Assembly (NCBI GenBank): GCA_965226435.1
Contig: CBDDCY010000012.1
Span: 553,138-617,137 of the forward strand
Length of the DNA stretch: 64,000 nt
Direction: 5' to 3'
DNA from: Bryobacterales bacterium
GTDB lineage: Bacteria; Acidobacteriota; Terriglobia; Bryobacterales; UBA6623
Position 1 is the first letter of the stretch. Each line of letters starts with the position of its first letter. Positions 6,446-17,084 of this stretch are shown here, in pieces. The position numbers and the translations under genes were made by a program. The notes under the pieces are model-generated. The model worked only from the letters and a program-made list of their open reading frames with translations. It was not told where the DNA came from and did not search any database.

Positions 6446-7326
6446 TACGCGGGGTATGGCGGCGCTCCTCCGGTCAATCGCAGCTTCAGCGCTTGGACGA
6501 CGATCCACACCTTTTCGAAATCGCTCAATCGGGCGCGGCTCGTGAAGACATCGTAGCCGCGGCCGCGAATGCGCCGCAAGATACCGTAGTAGATCGAAAT
6601 CATGGCCCACAGCGAGGGGCGCCCGGTCGGGCTGACCATGCCGAGCAGCGGCGCGGCTTCGGCGTAATATCGGTTGGCGCGCTCCCACTCGAAGGCCATC
6701 AACTTTTCAAACCCTTCTCCCGGACGGCCCGCGAGCAAATCCTCGGCGCTGACTCCGAACCTTGCGAGGTCTTCCTGGGGCAGATAGATGCGTCCCATGC
6801 GGGCGTCTTCGGGAATGTCTCGCAGGATGTTGGTGAGCTGAAAGGCCACGCCGCATTTTTCGGCCAAGCGAAGCGCGTCAGGCGAGTCGAACCCCCAGAC
6901 GTGAATACAAGTCATGCCGACGACCGAGGCGACCTGATAGCAATAGCGGTAGAGCTCGTCGAAGGTCTTGGGCTGTCGCGGAACCAAGTCCGAGCCCACG
7001 CCATCGATCAGTTCGAAAAAATATTCGGGCGGAATACGGTAGCGTTTGACCGTGTCGTGAAAGGCGGGCAGGATCGGGTTGTCGCCGTAACGCCCTTCGA
7101 GCGCTTGTTGGAGTCCGTGTTTCCAATCGGCAAGCGCCGCGCGGCGAGCCGCTACCGGCGGTTCGGTCTCGTCGCTGATGTCGTCGGCGTACCGCATGAA
7201 CGCATAGATGGCGCACATGGCGGTCTTTTGTTCGCGGGGAAGCAGCACAAAGGAGTAGTAGAAATTCCTTGCCCGGCGGCGAGCGATGCGCCGACAATGC
7301 TCGTACGATTCTTCGAGGGGAGGCAT
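6445..7326 (-). CDS. hpnD: Presqualene diphosphate synthase (squalene/phytoene synthase family)
   Basis: SQS/PSY family motifs YAFMRYADDISDE and YCYQVASVVG..NILRDIPEDARMGRIYLP. Position between hpnC and hpnE. Confidence 0.85.
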   Translation of the reverse strand: MPPLEESYEHCRRIARRRARNFYYSFVLLPREQKTAMCAIYAFMRYADDISDETEPPVAARRAALADWKHGLQQALEGRYGDNPILPAFHDTVKRYRIPPEYFFELIDGVGSDLVPRQPKTFDELYRYCYQVASVVGMTCIHVWGFDSPDALRLAEKCGVAFQLTNILRDIPEDARMGRIYLPQEDLARFGVSAEDLLAGRPGEGFEKLMAFEWERANRYYAEAAPLLGMVSPTGRPSLWAMISIYYGILRRIRGRGYDVFTSRARLSDFEKVWIVVQALKLRLTGGAPPYPA

Positions 7327-8373: not shown

Positions 8374-9435
8374 CTACGGCAGAATCGCTGTTTTCAGATG
8401 GCCGTTGTGGCTCATCATTTCGCGGAAAACCGAGAGCAGATCGGACAGCGGCGCTTCGTTGATGACGAAATCGGCCGAGCGCAGGTCGCGTCGGCGAATG
8501 ATTTCGAGGGCCTGGCGGATATGCCGCGGGGTGTGGTGGAAGCTCGACTTGAGCGTAACCTCGGAGTAGTGAATCAGCGAAGTGTCGATCGGTACGTGGC
8601 TGTTGCCGGGACAACCGCCGAAGAAGTTGACGGTCCCGCCGCCGCGCACCATCCCCATCGCCGCCTGCCAAGTATCGGGCGTGCCGACAGCTTCGATCAC
8701 GGCGTCCGCGCCGCGCCGCTCGTCGGTGAGGCCGCGCACTTGGGCCACCCAGTCGGCGCCGTCGGCGGCGATGACGAGTTCGTCGGCGCCCATGCGCTCG
8801 GCACGCTCAAGCTGCGTCGGGCGGCGGCCGATAGCAATCACGCGCGCGCCGCTGAGGTGCGCCAATCGCACGAACATCAGCCCGATCGGACCGAGCCCGA
8901 TCACCGCGACCGTGTCTCCTTCGTGAATCGCGGTTTCCTCAATGCCCCGCATTACGCACGCCAGCGGCTCGACCATCGCCGCGTCGCGATAGGCAACTCC
9001 GTCGGCGATCTCGTGGGTATTGCAAGCAACAATCGGTCCCGGAATGCGAACGTACTCCGCATAAGCGCCGTTATTGAACAGCAGGTTTTCACAAAGGTTT
9101 TGTTGATCCCGCGTGCAGGGATAGCACTGCCGGCAAGGCGCCGAATTGGCCGCGACCACTCGCTGCCCCACTTGGAAGTTTTCCACTTCCGAACCTACCG
9201 CCACGATGTCGCCCGCCAGCTCATGCCCCAGCACCGCCGGAGGCTGGATCATGCGCGCATGGTAACCCCGCCGAAACACCTTCAAGTCGGTGCCGCAGGT
9301 CAGAGCCACCTGAACCCTCACCAAGATGTCGTTGGGTCCCGCGGACGGCACGGGAACCGGCTCAATGCGGAGTTCCTCTTTGCCGTACAACATCGCGGCC
9401 ATCATGGTCTGTTTCACGTTCGAATTCCTCAACAA
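8374..9435 (-). CDS. Zn-dependent medium-chain alcohol/polyol dehydrogenase (MDR family), paralog 2
   Basis: Catalytic Zn ligand region CGTDLK...GHELAG, structural Zn cluster CRQCYPCTRDQQNLC, and Rossmann motif VIGLGPIGL. It is 12 nt downstream of paralog 1. The exact start is uncertain (MLRNSNV or MMAAMLYG). Confidence 0.8.
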   Translation of the reverse strand: MLRNSNVKQTMMAAMLYGKEELRIEPVPVPSAGPNDILVRVQVALTCGTDLKVFRRGYHARMIQPPAVLGHELAGDIVAVGSEVENFQVGQRVVAANSAPCRQCYPCTRDQQNLCENLLFNNGAYAEYVRIPGPIVACNTHEIADGVAYRDAAMVEPLACVMRGIEETAIHEGDTVAVIGLGPIGLMFVRLAHLSGARVIAIGRRPTQLERAERMGADELVIAADGADWVAQVRGLTDERRGADAVIEAVGTPDTWQAAMGMVRGGGTVNFFGGCPGNSHVPIDTSLIHYSEVTLKSSFHHTPRHIRQALEIIRRRDLRSADFVINEAPLSDLLSVFREMMSHNGHLKTAILP

Positions 9436-9447
9436 ACGCTTGCGCCG

Positions 9448-10530
9448 TCAATTCTGCGGATGCACCACCAGCTTCAGAGAACCATTGACGGGATGACGCG
9501 CCAACTCGATCCCATGCTCCAACTCGCCCAAGGGCAGACGATGCGATATCAGCTCTTCGACCGGGAAGTCGTCGCGCCACACGATTTCCGCCGACTCTTG
9601 CTGCAAATCAATCGCGGCGCTATAGGACCCGAAGACGGTGCGCTCCTGGGCGCAAATCGCCGCGCCCGACAACTCAAACGTTTCCCGCGACGAGGTCTGC
9701 GCGAAAAGCATCACGCGGCCTCCGGGCCGTGAAGCTTCGATCGCCTTCTCGACAATCCGGGGCGCCGAAGCGGCCACGATGACGAGATCGGCGCCGCGCC
9801 CCGCGGTCTTGGCGGCCAACTCCGCGGCCAGGTCGGTTTCCAGTGGATTCCAGCATTCGACGGCGCCCATCCGCCGCGAAGCCTTGATACGCGGCTTCAA
9901 GACGTCGGTCGCGAAAACCTGCTCCACGCCCGCCTGCCCGAGCAGCATCGTAAACAGCAGCCCGATCGGGCCCTGCCCCATGACAAGGACGGTCTCGTCG
10001 CGGGCGACGTCACACTGCCGCAAAGCTTTCAAGCAGGTATTCACTGGTTCCACGAAACTGGCGCGGTCGAAACTGATATCGTTGGGAATCTTCACGACGC
10101 CGCGCCGCGCGATCCAATCCATAACCTTGACGTACTGCGCGAAGCCGCCCCCGGCCGGCTCGAATCCGGCCGTCACGCCGACTTTCTTGTAGGTCGCGCA
10201 CTGTGCGTAGTTGCCGTGCTCGCAATAGAAACAATCGAGACACGGCACATGGTGGAACAAGCAAACCCTGTCGCCCGGCGCGAGATCCCGCACCTCATCA
10301 CCGGTGCGCGCGACCACGCCGGCGGTTTCATGCCCAAAGACGCGCGGCGGCGGAAGCAGGTCGTATTCAATCTTTTTCAAATCCGTATGACAAATGCCGC
10401 AGGACTCCACGCGCACCAACAACTCGCCGGATCCGATTTCGGGGACCGGAAGCTGTTCCAAATGGACACGACTCGAGCCTCGATAAACCGAAGCTCCCAT
10501 CGAATCCGGCACCGCTAAAGCACTCATCAT
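9448..10530 (-). CDS. Zn-dependent medium-chain alcohol/polyol dehydrogenase (MDR family), paralog 1
   Basis: Motifs CGICHTDLK...GHETAG, structural Zn cluster CLDCFYCEHGNYAQC, and VMGQGPIGL. The start codon at 10530 directly abuts the hpnG stop (10531-10533). Confidence 0.8.
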   Translation of the reverse strand: MMSALAVPDSMGASVYRGSSRVHLEQLPVPEIGSGELLVRVESCGICHTDLKKIEYDLLPPPRVFGHETAGVVARTGDEVRDLAPGDRVCLFHHVPCLDCFYCEHGNYAQCATYKKVGVTAGFEPAGGGFAQYVKVMDWIARRGVVKIPNDISFDRASFVEPVNTCLKALRQCDVARDETVLVMGQGPIGLLFTMLLGQAGVEQVFATDVLKPRIKASRRMGAVECWNPLETDLAAELAAKTAGRGADLVIVAASAPRIVEKAIEASRPGGRVMLFAQTSSRETFELSGAAICAQERTVFGSYSAAIDLQQESAEIVWRDDFPVEELISHRLPLGELEHGIELARHPVNGSLKLVVHPQN

Positions 10531-11250
10531 CTACACGTCAAATTTCGCGCGGCTGAAAAACGCCGCCAACGCAACGGCCGCCAGCTCGGAGTCGGCCTTG
10601 AGCCGTCGCAAGCTCTTCCAACAACGCGGGCGCGCTATGATTTGGGCCGCCACGCGCCAACCCGAAAACGTTCCGTCGGATCGTCGCGCCCGATTAAGGT
10701 CGATCGGGAATGACGCCTCGGCCTCATCACTGATCACGCGGACGCAGAAAAACGGCAATTTCCGTGCCGCGGCTTCCGCTGCAACCGCCGAGGCTTCCAT
10801 CTCGACGGCATCCGCCCTGAGTCTAAAAAGCTCCCTTTTTCCGCGAGCCGTTTGGACAACCTCATCGACGGTCAACAAAGAGCCGTGCGCAGGCTTCCGC
10901 CCTCCCGACCAAGTCGGTAACTTTACAGCATACTCCAGTCGCGGCTCGCGCTGTATGACACGTGTGGCAATGAAAACGTCCGCAAGAGAAAGTGTTTCAG
11001 CGAGGGCACCCGCGAATCCAGTCGAAATCACGGCTGCAACCGGCTGCTCGGCGCACGCGCGGCGCACAGCACACCCCGCGTTTTCTCGCCCCGGCCCGTG
11101 GGCGACGAGCAAGGCCGGACCCGCCCTCAAGGTAGTTCGCGCTTTCCAACGAAGCCCGGCTGGGGACGTCGACGGTTCGACGTCAGGGAACGCCGCGAAC
11201 TCCCGCCGGTCGGCCCCGACGACTAGCAATACCGGTTGTTCTGAAACCAT
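10531..11250 (-). CDS. hpnG: Hopanoid-associated nucleosidase/phosphorylase (PNP_UDP_1 family)
   Basis: About 240 aa phosphorylase-family protein (LLVVGADRREF..., EMEASAVAAEAA motif). It is flanked by hpnA and overlaps its 3' end by 28 nt. Confidence 0.7.
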   Translation of the reverse strand: MVSEQPVLLVVGADRREFAAFPDVEPSTSPAGLRWKARTTLRAGPALLVAHGPGRENAGCAVRRACAEQPVAAVISTGFAGALAETLSLADVFIATRVIQREPRLEYAVKLPTWSGGRKPAHGSLLTVDEVVQTARGKRELFRLRADAVEMEASAVAAEAAARKLPFFCVRVISDEAEASFPIDLNRARRSDGTFSGWRVAAQIIARPRCWKSLRRLKADSELAAVALAAFFSRAKFDV

Positions 11251-12272
11251 CGAATCGCTCGCTCGAGAGCTGCTTCCAGCGGCCCGCCCGCGAAGCCGAT
11301 TTCCCGCTCGGCCTTCGCGGACTCCACAAACATTTTCTTGCGGGCCATGCGGACGGCATCGAGCGGTGCGCGCGGCGGTCGGCCGGTGAGCCGGGCGGCG
11401 GCGGTCGAGACAGCCCCATAAGCATAGGCCGCGGCGTAGGGAATGCGGATCTTCGGCGCGGGCCGGCCGCTGATCGTCGACAACGCCTCGAAGATCTCCC
11501 GCAGCGTCATGTTTCGTCCGCCCAATATGTAACGCTCCCCGCTCACGCCTTGTTCCATGGCCGCCAAGTGACCGCGGGCAACATCACGAACATCGACCAT
11601 ATTCAAGCCGGTGTCGAGATAGGCCGGCATTGCGCCCCTGAGGAAATCGACGATGATTTGCCCCGTCGGCGTTGGCTTGCGGTCGCCCTCGCCAACCGGC
11701 GCCGTGGGGTTGACGACGACGACGGGCAATCCGTCGGCCGCGAATTCCAGCGCGACTTGCTCCGCTAGAAATTTGGAGCGCTTGTAGGCTCCTTCCATTT
11801 CCGATAGTGAGACAGGCGTGTCTTCGTTGCCCGATTCGGCGGTGCCCGGTACGCCGATGCAGCCGACCGTCGAGGTGTAGACGACGCGCTTGACGCCGGC
11901 GGCGCGGGCCGCCTGAAGAATGTTTCGGGTGCCCTGGACATTCGAGGCGTAAATTTCAGCCGGGTTCGGCGCCCACAACCGATAATCCGCGGCGACGTGG
12001 AATAGCTCGGTGCAGCCGTCGATCGCGGTTCGAAGCGACGCCGGGTCGCGCAGATCGCCGATCACCGGCTCGACCGCAAGATCCACGATACCCGCGCGGT
12101 CGCTCGACGGCCGCACCAAAGCTCGGACCGAGCGACCTTCGTCCACCAACAGGCGGGCGATGTGGGAGCCGAGGAATCCTGAAGCGCCGGTAAGGAACGT
12201 CACAATGCGCGGGAGCGGAACTGCCGGCACGCTGCATCCCGTACGCCGACCTAGGGATTGCGCGGCCTTCAA
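11223..12272 (-). CDS. hpnA: Hopanoid-associated NAD(P)-dependent sugar epimerase/dehydratase-family protein
   Basis: SDR extended-family motif FLTGASGFLGSHIARLL and catalytic YxxxK (YKRSKFLAE). Cluster position. An alternative downstream start is possible. Confidence 0.7.
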   Translation of the reverse strand: MKAAQSLGRRTGCSVPAVPLPRIVTFLTGASGFLGSHIARLLVDEGRSVRALVRPSSDRAGIVDLAVEPVIGDLRDPASLRTAIDGCTELFHVAADYRLWAPNPAEIYASNVQGTRNILQAARAAGVKRVVYTSTVGCIGVPGTAESGNEDTPVSLSEMEGAYKRSKFLAEQVALEFAADGLPVVVVNPTAPVGEGDRKPTPTGQIIVDFLRGAMPAYLDTGLNMVDVRDVARGHLAAMEQGVSGERYILGGRNMTLREIFEALSTISGRPAPKIRIPYAAAYAYGAVSTAAARLTGRPPRAPLDAVRMARKKMFVESAKAEREIGFAGGPLEAALERAIRWFQNNRYC

Positions 12273-12347
12273 CCATACGTTTTCAAACCTACCGGCCCCG
12301 GCGAGCGATAGAATCGAGCGAACTTTTTCCGCTCCAACCCGGATGTG

Positions 12348-12812
12348 CTAGCACGCACCAGGGTTCTCGTTGGGATTGATAACCTCGATACCCTCCGCCA
12401 TTGCCGCATCCAGTAACTCGTCATCAGCGCAAACGAAAGAGAATCCTTGAACGCCCACTCCGGTGCTTAGAGCGATGCAGCCGGCTAGTTGCATCGCGTC
12501 GTAGGCGCGAAGGGGATGACGGGCGATGATTGCAACCGCCTCTTCCAGGACCGACGCCGTCAAGGGCTGGACGAGAAACAAGCCTTGCAGGTCGGAATCC
12601 AGTTGTGTCAGAACATTGGCAGCTTCAGCACTCGAAACGTCTCCTCCCCGTTCCCGGCGGCGGACCGCCGAATGAAACTCCACTCGGGACACTTCGAGGA
12701 TCGCAAAGTGATCGCGCTCGGGGTCTCGCAACAAATCAGCAACCCGGCCCGACCCGATTTCTTGAATGTAGAGCTTTGCGAGCGCGCTTGTGTCCAAATA
12801 GTAGACCGCCAA
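12348..12812 (-). CDS. vapC: PIN-domain ribonuclease toxin (VapC-like)
   Basis: N-terminal YYLDTSAL (first acidic residue), plus ILEVSRVEF and RAYDAMQLA acidic positions. 154 aa. TTG start immediately after the TAA stop of the upstream ORF. Confidence 0.75.
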   Translation of the reverse strand: MAVYYLDTSALAKLYIQEIGSGRVADLLRDPERDHFAILEVSRVEFHSAVRRRERGGDVSSAEAANVLTQLDSDLQGLFLVQPLTASVLEEAVAIIARHPLRAYDAMQLAGCIALSTGVGVQGFSFVCADDELLDAAMAEGIEVINPNENPGAC

Positions 12813-13529
12813 TTACCGTCGCCCTTCAAGAATGGTTTCGGATAAGGGCCTGCCTTTGATTCGTATCGGACGGAATCGCTTTGGCTCCGGTCTCCGCGAG
12901 ACAAGGTTTGCGAAGTCGGGATGTCCCCGGTTGAGCCGTACGGTTGTGGTTGGATACATCGGCGCCTTGGGGTTATGAATCTTTGCGGTGAGTACGAGAC
13001 CGCAGTCGGTTGCCCGCCGCAGAATCCGGTTCCGTTCGGCGCCATCAACGGTCCAAGAGAAACCTCGGCCGGGGAGGTACGTGTCTCGGAACCATTTCAG
13101 AGCAACAAAGCGCCTTTCCGGGCTGCTTTCCGCTTCGTCCAGCGCCTCGATCAGATTCTTGATTCGGCTCTCGGATAGGTTTGGCGGACCCTCAACAAGG
13201 CTGTCGATTACTTCCCTCGAAAGCTCACTGTCGCCTGCCTCACGATCAGTGGTGGACGCGGCTTCATCTCTTCGTTCGTAACCAATCAATGCCTGGCACT
13301 CAGCCGGTTTCCAGTATTCAGCGGCTGCATTGCGTCGGATCCTGCGAACCCCGCGGTTTGTGCCCGGACGCACCAACAAAACTTGCGGTTCTAGGCCCTT
13401 CGGGGCCAAGTGACGAAGATCCGCCAACTCAGCCGGCAGGTCGCTGGTGTTACGCAGGGCCTTCAAGGCATTCTCAATATCCACTTGGATCTCCGCGATC
13501 GTTTTTTTCGGTTTGGGAATACGCTTCAT
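12813..13529 (-). CDS. Hypothetical 238-aa protein in the antitoxin position of the PIN module (atypically long)
   Basis: Its stop abuts the vapC start. The C-terminal tail is RPIRIKGRPLSETILEGRR. A central region (RFVALKWFRDTYLPGRGF...LVLTAKIHNP) could be a winged-helix-like fold. I recognise no family. It is preceded by an AT-rich promoter-like region. Confidence 0.5.
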   Translation of the reverse strand: MKRIPKPKKTIAEIQVDIENALKALRNTSDLPAELADLRHLAPKGLEPQVLLVRPGTNRGVRRIRRNAAAEYWKPAECQALIGYERRDEAASTTDREAGDSELSREVIDSLVEGPPNLSESRIKNLIEALDEAESSPERRFVALKWFRDTYLPGRGFSWTVDGAERNRILRRATDCGLVLTAKIHNPKAPMYPTTTVRLNRGHPDFANLVSRRPEPKRFRPIRIKGRPLSETILEGRR

Positions 13530-13660
13530 CTACATATCTCATTTAAATTAAGTCGTTTAGAGTATTAACTCAGTCGATCGGAGACTGCGACCGCCAGATA
13601 TTCTCTTATATTGTATATAAAGGTTTATAGAGTTAATATTTCGATCTTACCAGCCGCGCC
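13530..13660 (-). promoter_or_regulatory. AT-rich promoter/operator-like region upstream of the TA module
   Basis: A strikingly AT-rich stretch in a GC-rich genome (ttaaattaagtcgtttagagtattaactc ... ttgtatataaaggtttatagagttaatatttcg). It contains the direct repeat TAGAGT(A)TTAA at 13558-13569 and 13628-13639. Confidence 0.4.
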
Positions 13661-13800
13661 CAGCGGTCGTCAAGCCCAGCACGATAGAGAGATCCCGGCA
13701 GGTTCGCGGAATGGTTCGCGCGGCGGGGGCCCGGCATTCCGGCGGTATCGCCTTGGGCCGCGCAAAAAGCAGGGCCGAGCACCGGCCGCGAGGAGGAGTC

Positions 13801-14919
13801 CTACGACAGCACCCAGCTCAGCATTTTCAAACTGTCGCCGAGCCGTGCGTTCACGCCCAAGGCCGCCGAGGGCTCGTAGCCGCAATGCACCAAACAGTGC
13901 TCGCAACGTTCATCGTTGCCGCGGCCGTAGTTTTGCCACGGCGTTTGATTCATCAATTCGTCGAAGGTCTCCCAATGGGCGTCGGTGATCAGGTAACAGG
14001 GACCCTTCCAACCGCGGACGTTGTAGGTCGGGTTGCCCCAAGCGGTACAAGGCAACTCGCGCTCGCCTTTCAAGAATTCCAAATACGCCGGCGTCGAGGT
14101 CAGCCGAAAGCGCCGAAAGATACGATCGATGTCTCGAAACTTCTCGTGCACTTCTTCCCGCGTCAAGAAGATCTCACGGGTGCCCACGGCCGCGTAACCG
14201 TAGGCGGGCGACAGCATATGCCCGTCGACGCCGAGCGGTTCGAGAAATTCATAGAGCGCTTCGATCTCCTTCATGTCCGTCTCGCGGTAGACGGTCGTGT
14301 TGGTGCAAACCATGAAGCCGGCCTTCTTCGCCGCGCGGATACCCTCGATCGCCTCGTCGAATACGCCCTCGCGCTCCACGGCCAGATCGTGCGTTTCTCG
14401 TAATCCATCCAAGTGGACATTGAAAAATAATCGATTGCACGGCTGAAACTCGTGCAGCCGCTTGACCAGAAACATGCCGTTCGTACAAAGGTAGACGTGA
14501 CGTTTGCGTTCTAAAATACTCGCCGCTAACGGCCCGATTTGTGGATACATCATCGGCTCGCCGCCGCATATCGAAACAATTGGCGCGCCGCACTCATCCA
14601 CGGCGGCGAGGCATTTTTCAAGCGGAATGCGCTCGGTGATCGTCTCGTCGTATTCGCGAATGCGACCACAGCCGGTGCAGGTCAAGTTGCAGGCGTGCAG
14701 GGGCTCGAGCATCAGCACCAGCGGGAAGCGCCTTCGCAAGTAGGGATGCGGAACCGCGTCACCGGAAATCCGCGTCGGGGCCGAGCCGTTCGCCAGAATC
14801 GGAAACGGGCCGGCACCGGCCGCCGGCGTCGGATCGCCCTGCCAACGAGCCGGAGGTCGCAGCCTATTCTTGGTGATGTAGGCGCCAAGCCGCACGGCGG
14901 TTTCGAGGGGAATGCGCAT
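13801..14919 (-). CDS. hpnH: Adenosylhopane synthase (radical SAM)
   Basis: Radical-SAM cluster motif CNLTCTGC. 372 aa, with the C-terminal Cys-rich region (CEHCLVHCGYE) typical of HpnH. Adjacent to shc. Confidence 0.85.
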   Translation of the reverse strand: MRIPLETAVRLGAYITKNRLRPPARWQGDPTPAAGAGPFPILANGSAPTRISGDAVPHPYLRRRFPLVLMLEPLHACNLTCTGCGRIREYDETITERIPLEKCLAAVDECGAPIVSICGGEPMMYPQIGPLAASILERKRHVYLCTNGMFLVKRLHEFQPCNRLFFNVHLDGLRETHDLAVEREGVFDEAIEGIRAAKKAGFMVCTNTTVYRETDMKEIEALYEFLEPLGVDGHMLSPAYGYAAVGTREIFLTREEVHEKFRDIDRIFRRFRLTSTPAYLEFLKGERELPCTAWGNPTYNVRGWKGPCYLITDAHWETFDELMNQTPWQNYGRGNDERCEHCLVHCGYEPSAALGVNARLGDSLKMLSWVLS

Positions 14920-15042: not shown

Positions 15043-16986
15043 CTACAGCGCCTTGGCGTACTCGGCCATGGCCAGTAACGGAAAATACTGCCGATAGAGA
15101 TCGTACTTCAAATAGAAAACGCCGGGGAAACCGGTTCCGGTGTAGTTCCATTCGCTCCACGAGCCGTCGGGACTCTGTGTTTCGAGCAAGTAACGGATCC
15201 CCGCCTCGACGCTGCCCGAGCGATTGTCTCCCGAGGCCAACAGTCCCAGCAACGCCCATGCCGTCTGTGAGGCCGTGCTCTCTCCCTCGGTCTTCTGTCT
15301 GGGATCATCGTACCCGGCGCAGCTTTCTCCCCAACCGCCGTCGGCGTTCTGGATCGAACGCAGCCATTCCCCGGCGCGGATGATGTAGGCCTCGCGGGGA
15401 TCCTCGCCCGCCGCCGCCAAACCCCGTAGAGCGAAACACGTGCCGTAGATATAGTTCACACCCCAACGCCCGAACCAGCCGCCGTCGTCTTCCTGCGTTC
15501 GTTTGAGAAACTCGACTCCCCGCCGCACGGCCGGATGGGACTCTCCCGGGCCGACCGTGCATAGCGCGTCCAAAACCCGCCCGGTCAAATCCGGGCAGGT
15601 CGGGTCGAGCATCGCGTTGTGGTCGGCGAAGGGAACATGGTTGAACAGGCGATTGTTGTTGTCCACGTCAAACGCGCCCCAACCGCCGTCCTTCGACTGC
15701 ATGCTGAGCAGCCATTTCACTCCGCGCCGTACGGCCGCGCGTTGAGCATCGAGGTTCGTCGCCTTGGCATGGCTCAACGCCAAAAGCACCTGCGCGGTGT
15801 CGTCGGTATCGGGATAAAACTCGTTCGCGAATTCGAAGTACCAGCCTCCCGGCTCGCCTGCTCGGTTTCTCACCGCCCAGTCGCCCGGCCGGCGCACTTC
15901 CTTCGTCAGCAACCAGTCGGCCGCGCGGCGCAAAGCCCCGCCGACCTCTTCGGAAGGATTCGGGAAAGCCGTTCCGACGGCGGCCGCCGCCAAGCCCGTG
16001 TCCCACACCGGCGACAGGCAGGGCTGTAGGCGCATCGTGCCGCTGTCGTCGTCGCCCTGCTCGATGATCAGCTCGTCGAACTTCTCGATCTGTCGCCGCA
16101 GCAACGGGTCGTCAAGCCCGTAGCCCAGCTCGGTCAGCGCCATGATGCAATTCATCATGGCCGGGAAGATCGCGCCCAGCCCGTCGGAATGCTCAAGCCT
16201 TTCGATCATCCAACGCGATGTGGCGCGAACCGCCTTGCGGCGCGCCCTTCGAATCCCAACGCGTTCCCAAACCTTGAGCGCGCGGTCGGCCAATAAGAAG
16301 AGATTGCCGGGGTCAAACAGATTGCCTTGCGCCCGCTGAGCATCCTTCGAAAGCTCATCCAAATCAATACCCGTCGGCATGGGGCGAGAAGCTCCCAACG
16401 CGCCCAAAATCGCCAACGGAGCGATAATGGCGCGCGTCCATGACGACATGTCATAGACGCTGAACTTGGCTTTGTCGGGAAGCAGGAATAGCTCGGGGGG
16501 GATCGTCGGCGTCTTGGCGCGGTCGTAGAGCCCGAAGAAACTTAGATAAATCTTGGTATAGCTGTTGGTCGCCTCGACGCCGCCCAACTGGAGAATCCGC
16601 CGCTTGGCGTGAACCAGCCGCTCGTCGTCGGCGCCGTACCCGGTTAGCCGCAGGGCCAGATAGGCCTTGACCGAAGCGCTGACATTCACCGGCCCGCCCG
16701 GATAGATGTTCCAACCGCCGTCGGGAAGCTGCCGGCTGAGAATGTAGCGGGCGGCCCGTGCGATTCGATCGACGGTCGGAGGCCCCCAAGACCCCGCTCG
16801 GGGCGGGTAGAGCCACAATTGCAGCAGGATGTAGTCGGATTCAAGCGAGGTGTCGGCTTCCAGTTCACCGATCCACCAGCCGCCGGGCGACTGGCGGGCG
16901 AGCAAGCAGCCGGCGGCCGCGCGCACGGCCGAGTGGATCTCGGAATGTCGATCCGGAGCGAGAGTTTGTACCGCCGCTGTACTCAA
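15043..16986 (-). CDS. shc: Squalene-hopene cyclase
   Basis: 647 aa. Catalytic DxDDTA motif (YPDTDDTAQVLLAL). Repeated QW-type motifs (QSPDGSWSEW, QNADGGWGES, QEDDGGWFGRWG, QSKDGGWGAF). Confidence 0.95.
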   Translation of the reverse strand: MSTAAVQTLAPDRHSEIHSAVRAAAGCLLARQSPGGWWIGELEADTSLESDYILLQLWLYPPRAGSWGPPTVDRIARAARYILSRQLPDGGWNIYPGGPVNVSASVKAYLALRLTGYGADDERLVHAKRRILQLGGVEATNSYTKIYLSFFGLYDRAKTPTIPPELFLLPDKAKFSVYDMSSWTRAIIAPLAILGALGASRPMPTGIDLDELSKDAQRAQGNLFDPGNLFLLADRALKVWERVGIRRARRKAVRATSRWMIERLEHSDGLGAIFPAMMNCIMALTELGYGLDDPLLRRQIEKFDELIIEQGDDDSGTMRLQPCLSPVWDTGLAAAAVGTAFPNPSEEVGGALRRAADWLLTKEVRRPGDWAVRNRAGEPGGWYFEFANEFYPDTDDTAQVLLALSHAKATNLDAQRAAVRRGVKWLLSMQSKDGGWGAFDVDNNNRLFNHVPFADHNAMLDPTCPDLTGRVLDALCTVGPGESHPAVRRGVEFLKRTQEDDGGWFGRWGVNYIYGTCFALRGLAAAGEDPREAYIIRAGEWLRSIQNADGGWGESCAGYDDPRQKTEGESTASQTAWALLGLLASGDNRSGSVEAGIRYLLETQSPDGSWSEWNYTGTGFPGVFYLKYDLYRQYFPLLAMAEYAKAL

Positions 16987-17084
16987 GTGCTCAACTCCCA
17001 GTTAACTCTACAGAAGAACGCGGGGCGTTTCGAGTCGCCTCGGGCGCCGCATGAACTCAAAGCCCTCGTCGCTCTTGCGCCGTT

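Follow-up and report, generated by a model that had tools for sequence, protein, structure and literature searches.

In a 64-kb window (the whole stretch of DNA analysed) from the soil acidobacterium Bryobacterales bacterium (GCA_965226435.1, contig CBDDCY010000012.1, positions 553,138-617,137), the hopanoid biosynthesis genes hpnH and hpnA are separated by a two-gene cassette that encodes a 238-residue protein, here called X, and a VapC-like PIN-domain protein. We consider it likely that this cassette is a horizontally acquired VapBC-like type II toxin-antitoxin (TA) module in which X serves as the antitoxin and represents a new antitoxin family. An earlier reading of the same DNA (hereafter, the original prediction) had placed a PIN gene and a 238-residue partner between hpnH and hpnA, and the open reading frames (ORFs) together with the matches of the flanking genes to TIGR03470 and TIGR03466 bear this out (Table 1).

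X and PIN form a closely coupled gene pair. The stop codon of X (TAA, 12815-12813) abuts the start codon of PIN (TTG, 12812-12810), exactly as had been predicted, and both ORFs lie in the same frame. A search with an X profile recovered 80 metagenome loci, 78 of which had enough downstream sequence to be scored; a PIN homologue directly follows X in all 78. Start and stop codons overlap as NTGA at 71 of these junctions, four have an in-frame stop-NNN-start arrangement, and three carry a +4 or +5 gap. In-frame junctions separated by a stop codon are also found in relatives with 34-60% identity (L005 at 6655-6663, L091, L095, L100, and L141), where they read TAG/TAA-NNN-TTG or -GTG. Linkage was also assessed in the reverse direction, starting from PIN homologues with 43-61% identity, and an X-family gene lay upstream in each of the four contexts fetched (hmmsearch E values of 1e-33 to 2e-66). 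Among these homologues are entries from metagenome-assembled genomes (MAGs) labelled Rhodospirillales, Baltobacteraceae, and Xenobia to which NCBI gives the name ‘type II toxin-antitoxin system VapC family toxin’. Because the linkage is complete in both directions (78/78 and 4/4), X and this PIN subfamily are obligate partners, and their pairing reaches beyond Acidobacteriota.

The acidic PIN residues D7, E45, D105, and D130 are all present in this copy. Across the PIN family (n = 78), position 7 is Asp or Glu in every member, E45 never varies, and 74 members have Asp or Glu at position 105; position 130 is Ser or Asp, with Ser in 56 members and Asp in the PINs of this clade. The closest solved relative by sequence is PAE0151 from Pyrobaculum (PDB 2FE1, E = 0.002), an archaeal protein of remote similarity. 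The ratios of nonsynonymous to synonymous substitution rates (dN/dS) range from 0.21 to 0.54 for X and from 0.13 to 0.26 for PIN, indicating purifying selection on both genes; X evolves faster, and its linker has the highest dN.

The insertion site between hpnH and hpnA

We fetched the hpnH neighbourhoods of 80 GTDB species representatives, nearly all of which are labelled Bryobacterales, Bryobacteraceae, or Terriglobia. In most of them hpnA follows hpnH across a short spacer, and tblastn detected X or PIN at the hpnH neighbourhood in none of the 80. Among loci obtained by protein look-up, the hpnH-X-PIN-hpnA arrangement is present only in L001 and L169, whose HpnH proteins are 97% and 93% identical, respectively, to the one encoded here. 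An empty site is seen in L009 (MAG OZ250179.1), and 78 other relatives likewise have neither gene at this position. The L009 flanks are 97.7% and 96.5% identical to those of the occupied L169 over 4.3 kb each, and its spacer measures 46 bp versus 1756 bp in L169. When the window is aligned to L009 with blastn, homology ends at 13801 and resumes at 12241. The end of the L009 spacer, TTGCGGGAACCTTCCGGGAT joined to GCAG, matches window positions 13711-13692 at 17 of 20 nucleotides (none of 2000 shuffles scored as well) and then continues with position 12241 onward. A 6-bp direct repeat, CGGGAT, flanks the DNA that is absent from L009, and the empty site contains a single copy of it; target duplication and microhomology are the candidate readings of this repeat. 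With a sequence identity of ~97%, the occupied and empty loci offer a clean natural case of gain or loss of a TA cassette in a biosynthetic operon. At ~6105-6135 of L009, where relatives have the cassette, the last 13 nt of hpnH occur in tandem duplicate (GGGCGCTGTCGTA twice), which may be a rearrangement scar.

The composition of the cassette differs from that of its surroundings. Its GC content (12353-13683) is 55.4%, the minimum among all 1331-bp stretches of the window (mean 62.0%, SD 2.0), and the GC content at third codon positions (GC3) is 0.61 for X and 0.63 for PIN, compared with 0.74-0.77 for hpnH, hpnA, and shc. Just 5′ of X, the 131 bp at 13530-13660 have a GC content of 36.6%, a value as low as which is found in only 0.06% of the window’s 131-bp stretches. 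These values agree with the originally described lower-GC two-gene unit preceded by ~130 bp of AT-rich sequence.

The same promoter-X-PIN cassette was found in four chromosomal contexts in all, that is, in at least three besides hpnH-hpnA. In L170 and L171 it lies between DUF3179 and ThuA genes, with X 79% and PIN 92% identical to the proteins studied here. The cassettes of L002-L004, L172, and L173 adjoin a PCMT methyltransferase gene (X 66-68% identical), and those of L005-L008 are located beside groES/groEL (X 34% and PIN 47% identical). Homology across contexts runs from ~10 bp upstream of the −35 element to the PIN stop codon. Horizontal insertion, as had been proposed, is indicated because a close relative has an empty site, a 6-bp repeat flanks the insert, the same cassette occurs in other contexts, and GC and GC3 are low. 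Together, the comparisons support a recent insertion of the cassette between hpnH and hpnA. The original prediction had further asked whether relatives carry hpnH and hpnA side by side, as L009 and most of the 80 representatives do, or whether the occupied arrangement is ancestral to all relatives with a flank-like GC content; none of the representatives is occupied, and the GC content is low. The hpnH-X-PIN-hpnA arrangement is derived, either with precise loss through the repeat in L009 or with more than one hit at this site, alternatives that arise because L009 groups with L169.

The description of the hopanoid array as interrupted holds insofar as the insertion lies between hpnH and hpnA, but it slightly overstates the case: only the spacer is affected, and neither gene is broken if hpnA starts at GTG 12203. 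The longest hpnA ORF (TTG 12272, 349 aa) begins within the inserted DNA. Positions 12242-12272 belong to the insert, and the true start is therefore most likely GTG 12203 (326 aa). This agrees with how the gene is called in L001 and L169 and with the L009 homology boundary.

Overall, these sequence comparisons show the cassette to be an autonomous, self-contained mobile unit, an ordinary kind of selfish element. A transposon or insertion sequence was considered and rejected, as the insert has only two ORFs, neither transposase-like, and inspection by eye revealed no terminal inverted repeat at its ends. Searching 72,556 plasmids and 50,697 phage records with tblastn returned no match to X, and a plasmid or phage origin was rejected on this basis. 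In L176 (175-2950), from the same metagenome sample as L001 (ERZ26167216), a paralogous X-PIN cassette (PIN 60% identical) adjoins a transposase of the IS1595 family.

Family and domain architecture of X

X had been noted as unusually large for a VapB-type partner and as lacking any AbrB, RHH, Phd, or Xre family signature. This assessment stands: X gave no match in Pfam (E ≤ 1, apart from a chance match to Fes1), NCBIfam, PADLOC, PHROG, or PDB sequences, an X alignment profile returned nothing credible from PDB sequences, and no known antitoxin family was matched. A literature search found no description of a winged-helix PIN antitoxin or an acidobacterial VapBC that fits the family. When 1.84 billion cluster representatives (50%-identity clusters) were searched with an X profile, 761 matched at E ≤ 1e-3, of which 245 reached E ≤ 1e-30; the matches are almost all 180-280 aa long. 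Every database name attached to X clusters is ‘hypothetical protein’. The named family members come from Acidobacteriota, and further ones are present in MAGs labelled Rhodospirillales and Baltobacteraceae. In all 150 listed matches the protein’s own C-terminus falls between positions 214 and 222 of the 222-position profile, almost always at 221-222. Because each of these 150 ends at or within a few positions of the profile C-terminus, X appears never to be fused to PIN.

Alignment and structure prediction divide X into an N-terminal domain, a disordered linker, a winged-helix-like domain, and a C-terminal tail (Table 1). The N-terminal domain contains a nearly invariant basic loop, RKKRR-NA-x4-W-x-P. 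Foldseek found no credible PDB fold for it; the best match (E = 0.65) was to ubiquitin-like or RAWUL folds at chance level, and assignment to these folds was rejected. This confidently modelled fold without a structural relative would be of use for structural study.

The model of residues 116-200 is helical with a β-hairpin wing. Winged-helix proteins (PadR, LmrR, RTP, a ROK repressor, and TFE) make up nearly all of its low root-mean-square-deviation matches in the PDB, which span ~80-90 columns, with a Foldseek probability of ~1, E ≥ 0.018, and 7-20% identity. Comparison with a viral library returned transcriptional regulators as well. The original statement that no DNA-binding family is recognisable in X holds at the level of sequence families, but not at the level of fold, where a winged-helix DNA-binding domain is predicted.

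The tail is among the best conserved segments of X. It includes the basic stretch RPIRIKGRPLSETILEGRR pointed out in the original prediction, and its model has a predicted local distance difference test score (pLDDT) of ~58-64 with a short helix at residues 229-235. The earlier proposal was that it could occlude the PIN active site. The tail is conserved, always forms the protein end, finishes in an Arg that does not vary, and scores low in pLDDT in the monomer model, making it the segment most consistent with toxin binding. Short X-family members of 121-169 aa (P0113, P0116, P0130, and L179) keep the winged helix and the tail and lack the N-terminal domain and linker; in L179 (2115-2498), a 127-aa member directly precedes a PIN gene. 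Because natural forms of 121-149 aa consist of the winged helix and tail only, we regard the two as the minimal unit and the N-terminal domain as accessory. Judged by the structural models, the short forms would define the minimal DNA-binding and neutralising unit.

Promoter region and neighbouring genes

The cassette carries a candidate σ70-type promoter, the only such site in 12100-13900. An alignment of the upstream regions of seven cassettes from three contexts revealed conservation of the −35 element (GGGCTTGAC), a TGn-extended −10 element, an invariant TATTAACT directly downstream of the −10, and a TTATATATA box. The best operator candidate, TATTAACTC, forms a 9-bp perfect inverted repeat with GAGTTAATA, of which the second arm is kept only in the closest relatives. 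A structured leader RNA built on these arms was rejected, since RNAalifold gave 0 conserved pairs across the seven cassettes and the single-sequence z-score was −0.46.

The two arms overlap the first and second copies, respectively, of a direct repeat, TAGAGT(A)TTAA, that had been put forward as an operator. As written, this motif matches one copy only: the copies, TAGAGTTAA (13628-13636) and TAGAGTATTAA (13558-13568), are a 2-nt indel apart. Moreover, the second copy is mutated in the 92%-identical L001 and is not found in L169, L170, L172, L173, or L002, and the direct-repeat operator was rejected for this lack of conservation. An additional exact TAGAGTTAA occurs at 17002-17010 on the minus strand, 16 nt upstream of the shc start, where the chance expectation in the window is 0.01. 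It was not accepted as a sign of control of the hopanoid operon by X, as it is conserved neither in L001 (TAGAGTCAA) nor in L169, and it is probably a coincidence.

In the native spacer, a terminator-like hairpin followed by a T-run stands right after the hpnH stop codon, and no terminator was predicted between the PIN stop codon and hpnA (12204-12347). Because of this distribution, read-through is possible, and the cassette promoter may now drive transcription of hpnA-hpnG.

All genes listed in Table 1 are on the minus strand, in the order shc, hpnH, X, PIN, hpnA, and the HpnG-like gene, the last of which overlaps the 3′ end of hpnA by 28 nt. It is followed by two tandem genes for zinc-type alcohol dehydrogenases (8374-10530), which occupy the same position in L001 and L169; in those two loci, SQS_PSY (squalene/phytoene synthase-like) genes come next. 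The alcohol dehydrogenase pair are unusual passengers for a hopanoid cluster.

Table 1 Features of the X-PIN cassette and its surroundings (window coordinates)
Feature	Coordinates	Strand	Basis or remark
Inserted DNA, 1450 bp (promoter, X, PIN, and ~100 bp of 3′ sequence)	12242-13691	-	Gap in L009 homology
CGGGAT, left copy of the 6-bp flanking direct repeat	13692-13697	-	ATCCCG on the plus strand
CGGGAT, right copy, 32 bp upstream of the probable hpnA GTG start	12236-12241	-	ATCCCG on the plus strand
Core cassette, 86.9% nucleotide identity to the L170 copy	12353-13683	-	blastn; L170 context between DUF3179 and ThuA genes
X gene, 238 aa, ATG start; predicted antitoxin	12813-13529	-	ORF list
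X N-terminal domain, residues ~10-88, α-α-β-β-β	13266-13502	-	AlphaFold domain model, pLDDT 87, pTM 0.74
X linker, residues 89-115 (~27), disordered	13185-13265	-	pLDDT <50; length and sequence variable across the family
X winged-helix-like domain, residues 116-200, FVALKWFRD ... PNPK.P.FP.T.RLNR	12930-13184	-	Alignment and AlphaFold/Foldseek
X C-terminal tail, residues 201-238; predicted toxin-binding segment	12816-12929	-	Invariant F219, P221, G226, S230, T232, R237
PIN-domain (VapC-like) gene, 154 aa, TTG start; predicted toxin	12348-12812	-	PF01850, E = 1e-8, above gathering score
Candidate σ70-type promoter, TTGACG-18 nt-TAAGAT with TG extension	13644-13673	-	Only such site in 12100-13900
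TATTAACTC, best operator candidate; first 8 nt = TATTAACT (invariant in 7/7)	13630-13638	-	Arm 1 of 9-bp perfect inverted repeat
GAGTTAATA	13563-13571	-	Arm 2 of 9-bp inverted repeat; 58 nt between arms
Terminator-like hairpin and T-run, native spacer upstream of the insert	13773-13787	-	Right after hpnH stop
Squalene-hopene cyclase (SHC)	15043-16986	-	ORF, upstream side of hpnH
HpnH	13801-14919	-	TIGR03470, E = 2e-126
HpnA, longest ORF	11223-12272	-	TIGR03466, E = 1e-141
HpnG-like phosphorylase	10531-11250	-	TIGR03468, 111 bits, below the curated cutoff of 187

Proposed mechanism, alternatives, and known systems

Based on these data, we propose a plausible mechanism for the cassette. A bicistronic mRNA would be transcribed from the cassette’s own promoter (13673-13644), and X would be translated first. 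Translation of PIN would then proceed by termination-reinitiation at the abutting, weak TTG codon, so that X is in excess and the toxin is kept below the antitoxin. When free, PIN would be toxic, acting as a Mg2+-dependent endoribonuclease that cleaves an RNA target and arrests translation. The tail of X, probably disordered on its own, would neutralise PIN. Structures of VapBC and FitAB complexes show Arg residues from the VapB C-terminus inserted into the active site of VapC (PMC5389673); by analogy, the terminal Arg of X (R237/R238) may reach into the acidic active site of PIN. The predicted winged helix may bind the conserved TATTAACT/TATATATA promoter region and thereby autorepress the operon. 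The N-terminal domain could act as an accessory module for dimerisation or sensing, and proteases could plausibly gain access at the long disordered linker, which would make X labile.

Several points weigh against X-PIN being a TA module of the VapBC type. The contact between the tail and PIN is drawn by analogy, and the winged helix is a fold-level assignment with weak E values (best 0.018). X has no match among the classical DNA-binding classes of VapB, and the domain predicted to bind DNA lies in the middle of the protein rather than at its N-terminus; the N-terminal domain has no assigned role. The wider PIN family is non-canonical, with Ser as the fourth acidic residue in 56 of 78 members and Glu at the first position, although this copy is canonical. 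Finally, PADLOC, plasmid, and phage searches gave no match and hence no independent functional annotation.

Alternative explanations were weighed against the same evidence. A part in defence is by now established for many type II TA modules, and the cassette could be an anti-phage abortive-infection system in which the N-terminal domain of X senses a phage cue and frees the PIN nuclease, with a role in defence rather than in addiction or stress. An N-terminal domain of unmatched fold on a long disordered linker would suit such a sensor, as would a cassette that is mobile, patchy, and self-contained. However, PADLOC returned no match, the four contexts are housekeeping neighbourhoods rather than defence islands, and short members that lack the N-terminal domain keep their PIN partner, so that this domain is not essential to the pair; we regard a defence role as unlikely. 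X could instead be a winged-helix transcription factor with PIN as a non-toxic co-regulator or RNA-processing partner, the two forming a FitAB-like DNA-bound complex that possibly regulates hpnA-hpnG. The fold prediction for X, the hairpin after hpnH with none between PIN and hpnA (and hence possible read-through into hpnA), and the frequent Ser at the fourth acidic position in the wider PIN family are compatible with this idea. Nonetheless, the unrelated neighbours elsewhere (PCMT, ThuA, and groESL) mean that no regulatory target is conserved, the first three acidic residues are kept throughout the family with all four present here, and start/stop coupling is typical of stoichiometry control in TA modules, all of which make a purely regulatory pair quite improbable.

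That X and PIN are made as one protein, through programmed readthrough of the TAA codon or because the stop codon arose in a fused gene by recent mutation or through an error in sequencing, has the least to recommend it. The two genes are in frame with only TAA between them, and some relatives with 34-60% identity have in-frame TAG-NNN-TTG junctions. Yet the NTGA overlaps that make up 71 of 78 junctions are out of frame, others have +4 or +5 gaps, and none of the 150 listed representatives extends past the end of the X profile. Precomputed Pfam annotation likewise places no PIN domain on X homologues, and the stop codon is present in every independent assembly. Readthrough or fusion was rejected as a family feature on the basis of the overlaps, the gaps, and the lack of a fused homologue, and for this copy it is extremely improbable. 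A more far-reaching and speculative view, which we doubt, holds that the X family is a new class of modular, signal-responsive antitoxins widespread in soil bacteria, in which the N-terminal domain (RKKRR...W.P) serves as a sensor or nucleic-acid-binding gate on PIN release, and that the cassette promoter has captured hpnA-hpnG, coupling hopanoid side-chain maturation to the state of the TA module.

We therefore return to the horizontally acquired VapBC-like module as the preferred reading and compare it with known systems. The relevant comparators are C. crescentus VapBC1, Shigella VapBC, Rickettsia VapBC2, and Neisseria FitAB, whose antitoxins are of the RHH, AbrB, Phd/YefM, or helix-turn-helix (HTH) type. 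Like these systems, the cassette has a PIN protein of ~150 aa with an acidic quartet, a coupled upstream gene for the predicted antitoxin, its own promoter, and a mobile, patchy distribution. X also has a C-terminal extension that contains Arg, like the part of the antitoxin that is inserted into the active site of VapC in known structures (PMC5389673). Unlike VapB proteins, X is approximately three times longer and falls outside the four DNA-binding classes that are classical for VapB (PMC3543421) and all Pfam and NCBIfam models, its winged helix is central, and it possesses an extra N-terminal domain without a fold match and a disordered linker of ~27 residues. Thus, of the marks of VapBC, a PIN toxin, operon coupling, and patchy mobility are found here, and a recognised VapB class is not.

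The best structural matches to residues ~116-200 of X are winged-helix regulators of the PadR/MarR/LmrR kind, although the likeness is at the fold level only (E ≥ 0.018, 7-20% identity), with no membership in their sequence families and with other flanking domains in X. Makarova et al. (2009) added DUF433, COG2880, COG1753, and MerR to the PIN partners and described fusions of DUF433 with a winged HTH, such as Rv2018 beside the PIN protein Rv2019 (PMC2701414). By sequence, X has no match to any of these groups. These COG2442/DUF433 antitoxins, exemplified by M. tuberculosis Rv2018/Rv2019, provide a precedent for a long, multi-domain PIN partner with a winged HTH. X differs in having no Pfam match at E ≤ 1 to DUF433, a three-helix domain.

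AbiEi antitoxins of the type IV system AbiE are 200-300 aa long and join a winged HTH, which serves autoregulation, to a distinct part that neutralises the toxin. X resembles them in its size and in having a predicted winged HTH together with a separate predicted neutralising part. However, the AbiE toxin is a DUF1814 nucleotidyltransferase (partner of the COG5340 antitoxin) and not a PIN protein, the domain order is reversed, and neither X nor PIN had a PADLOC match to AbiE. Describing the X family could enable annotation pipelines to recognise hundreds of orphan VapC toxins as full TA pairs. A PIN toxin with an antitoxin encoded upstream is a well-known mechanism class; the new part is the X family, which is large and undescribed and would extend the VapB repertoire by a winged-helix class.

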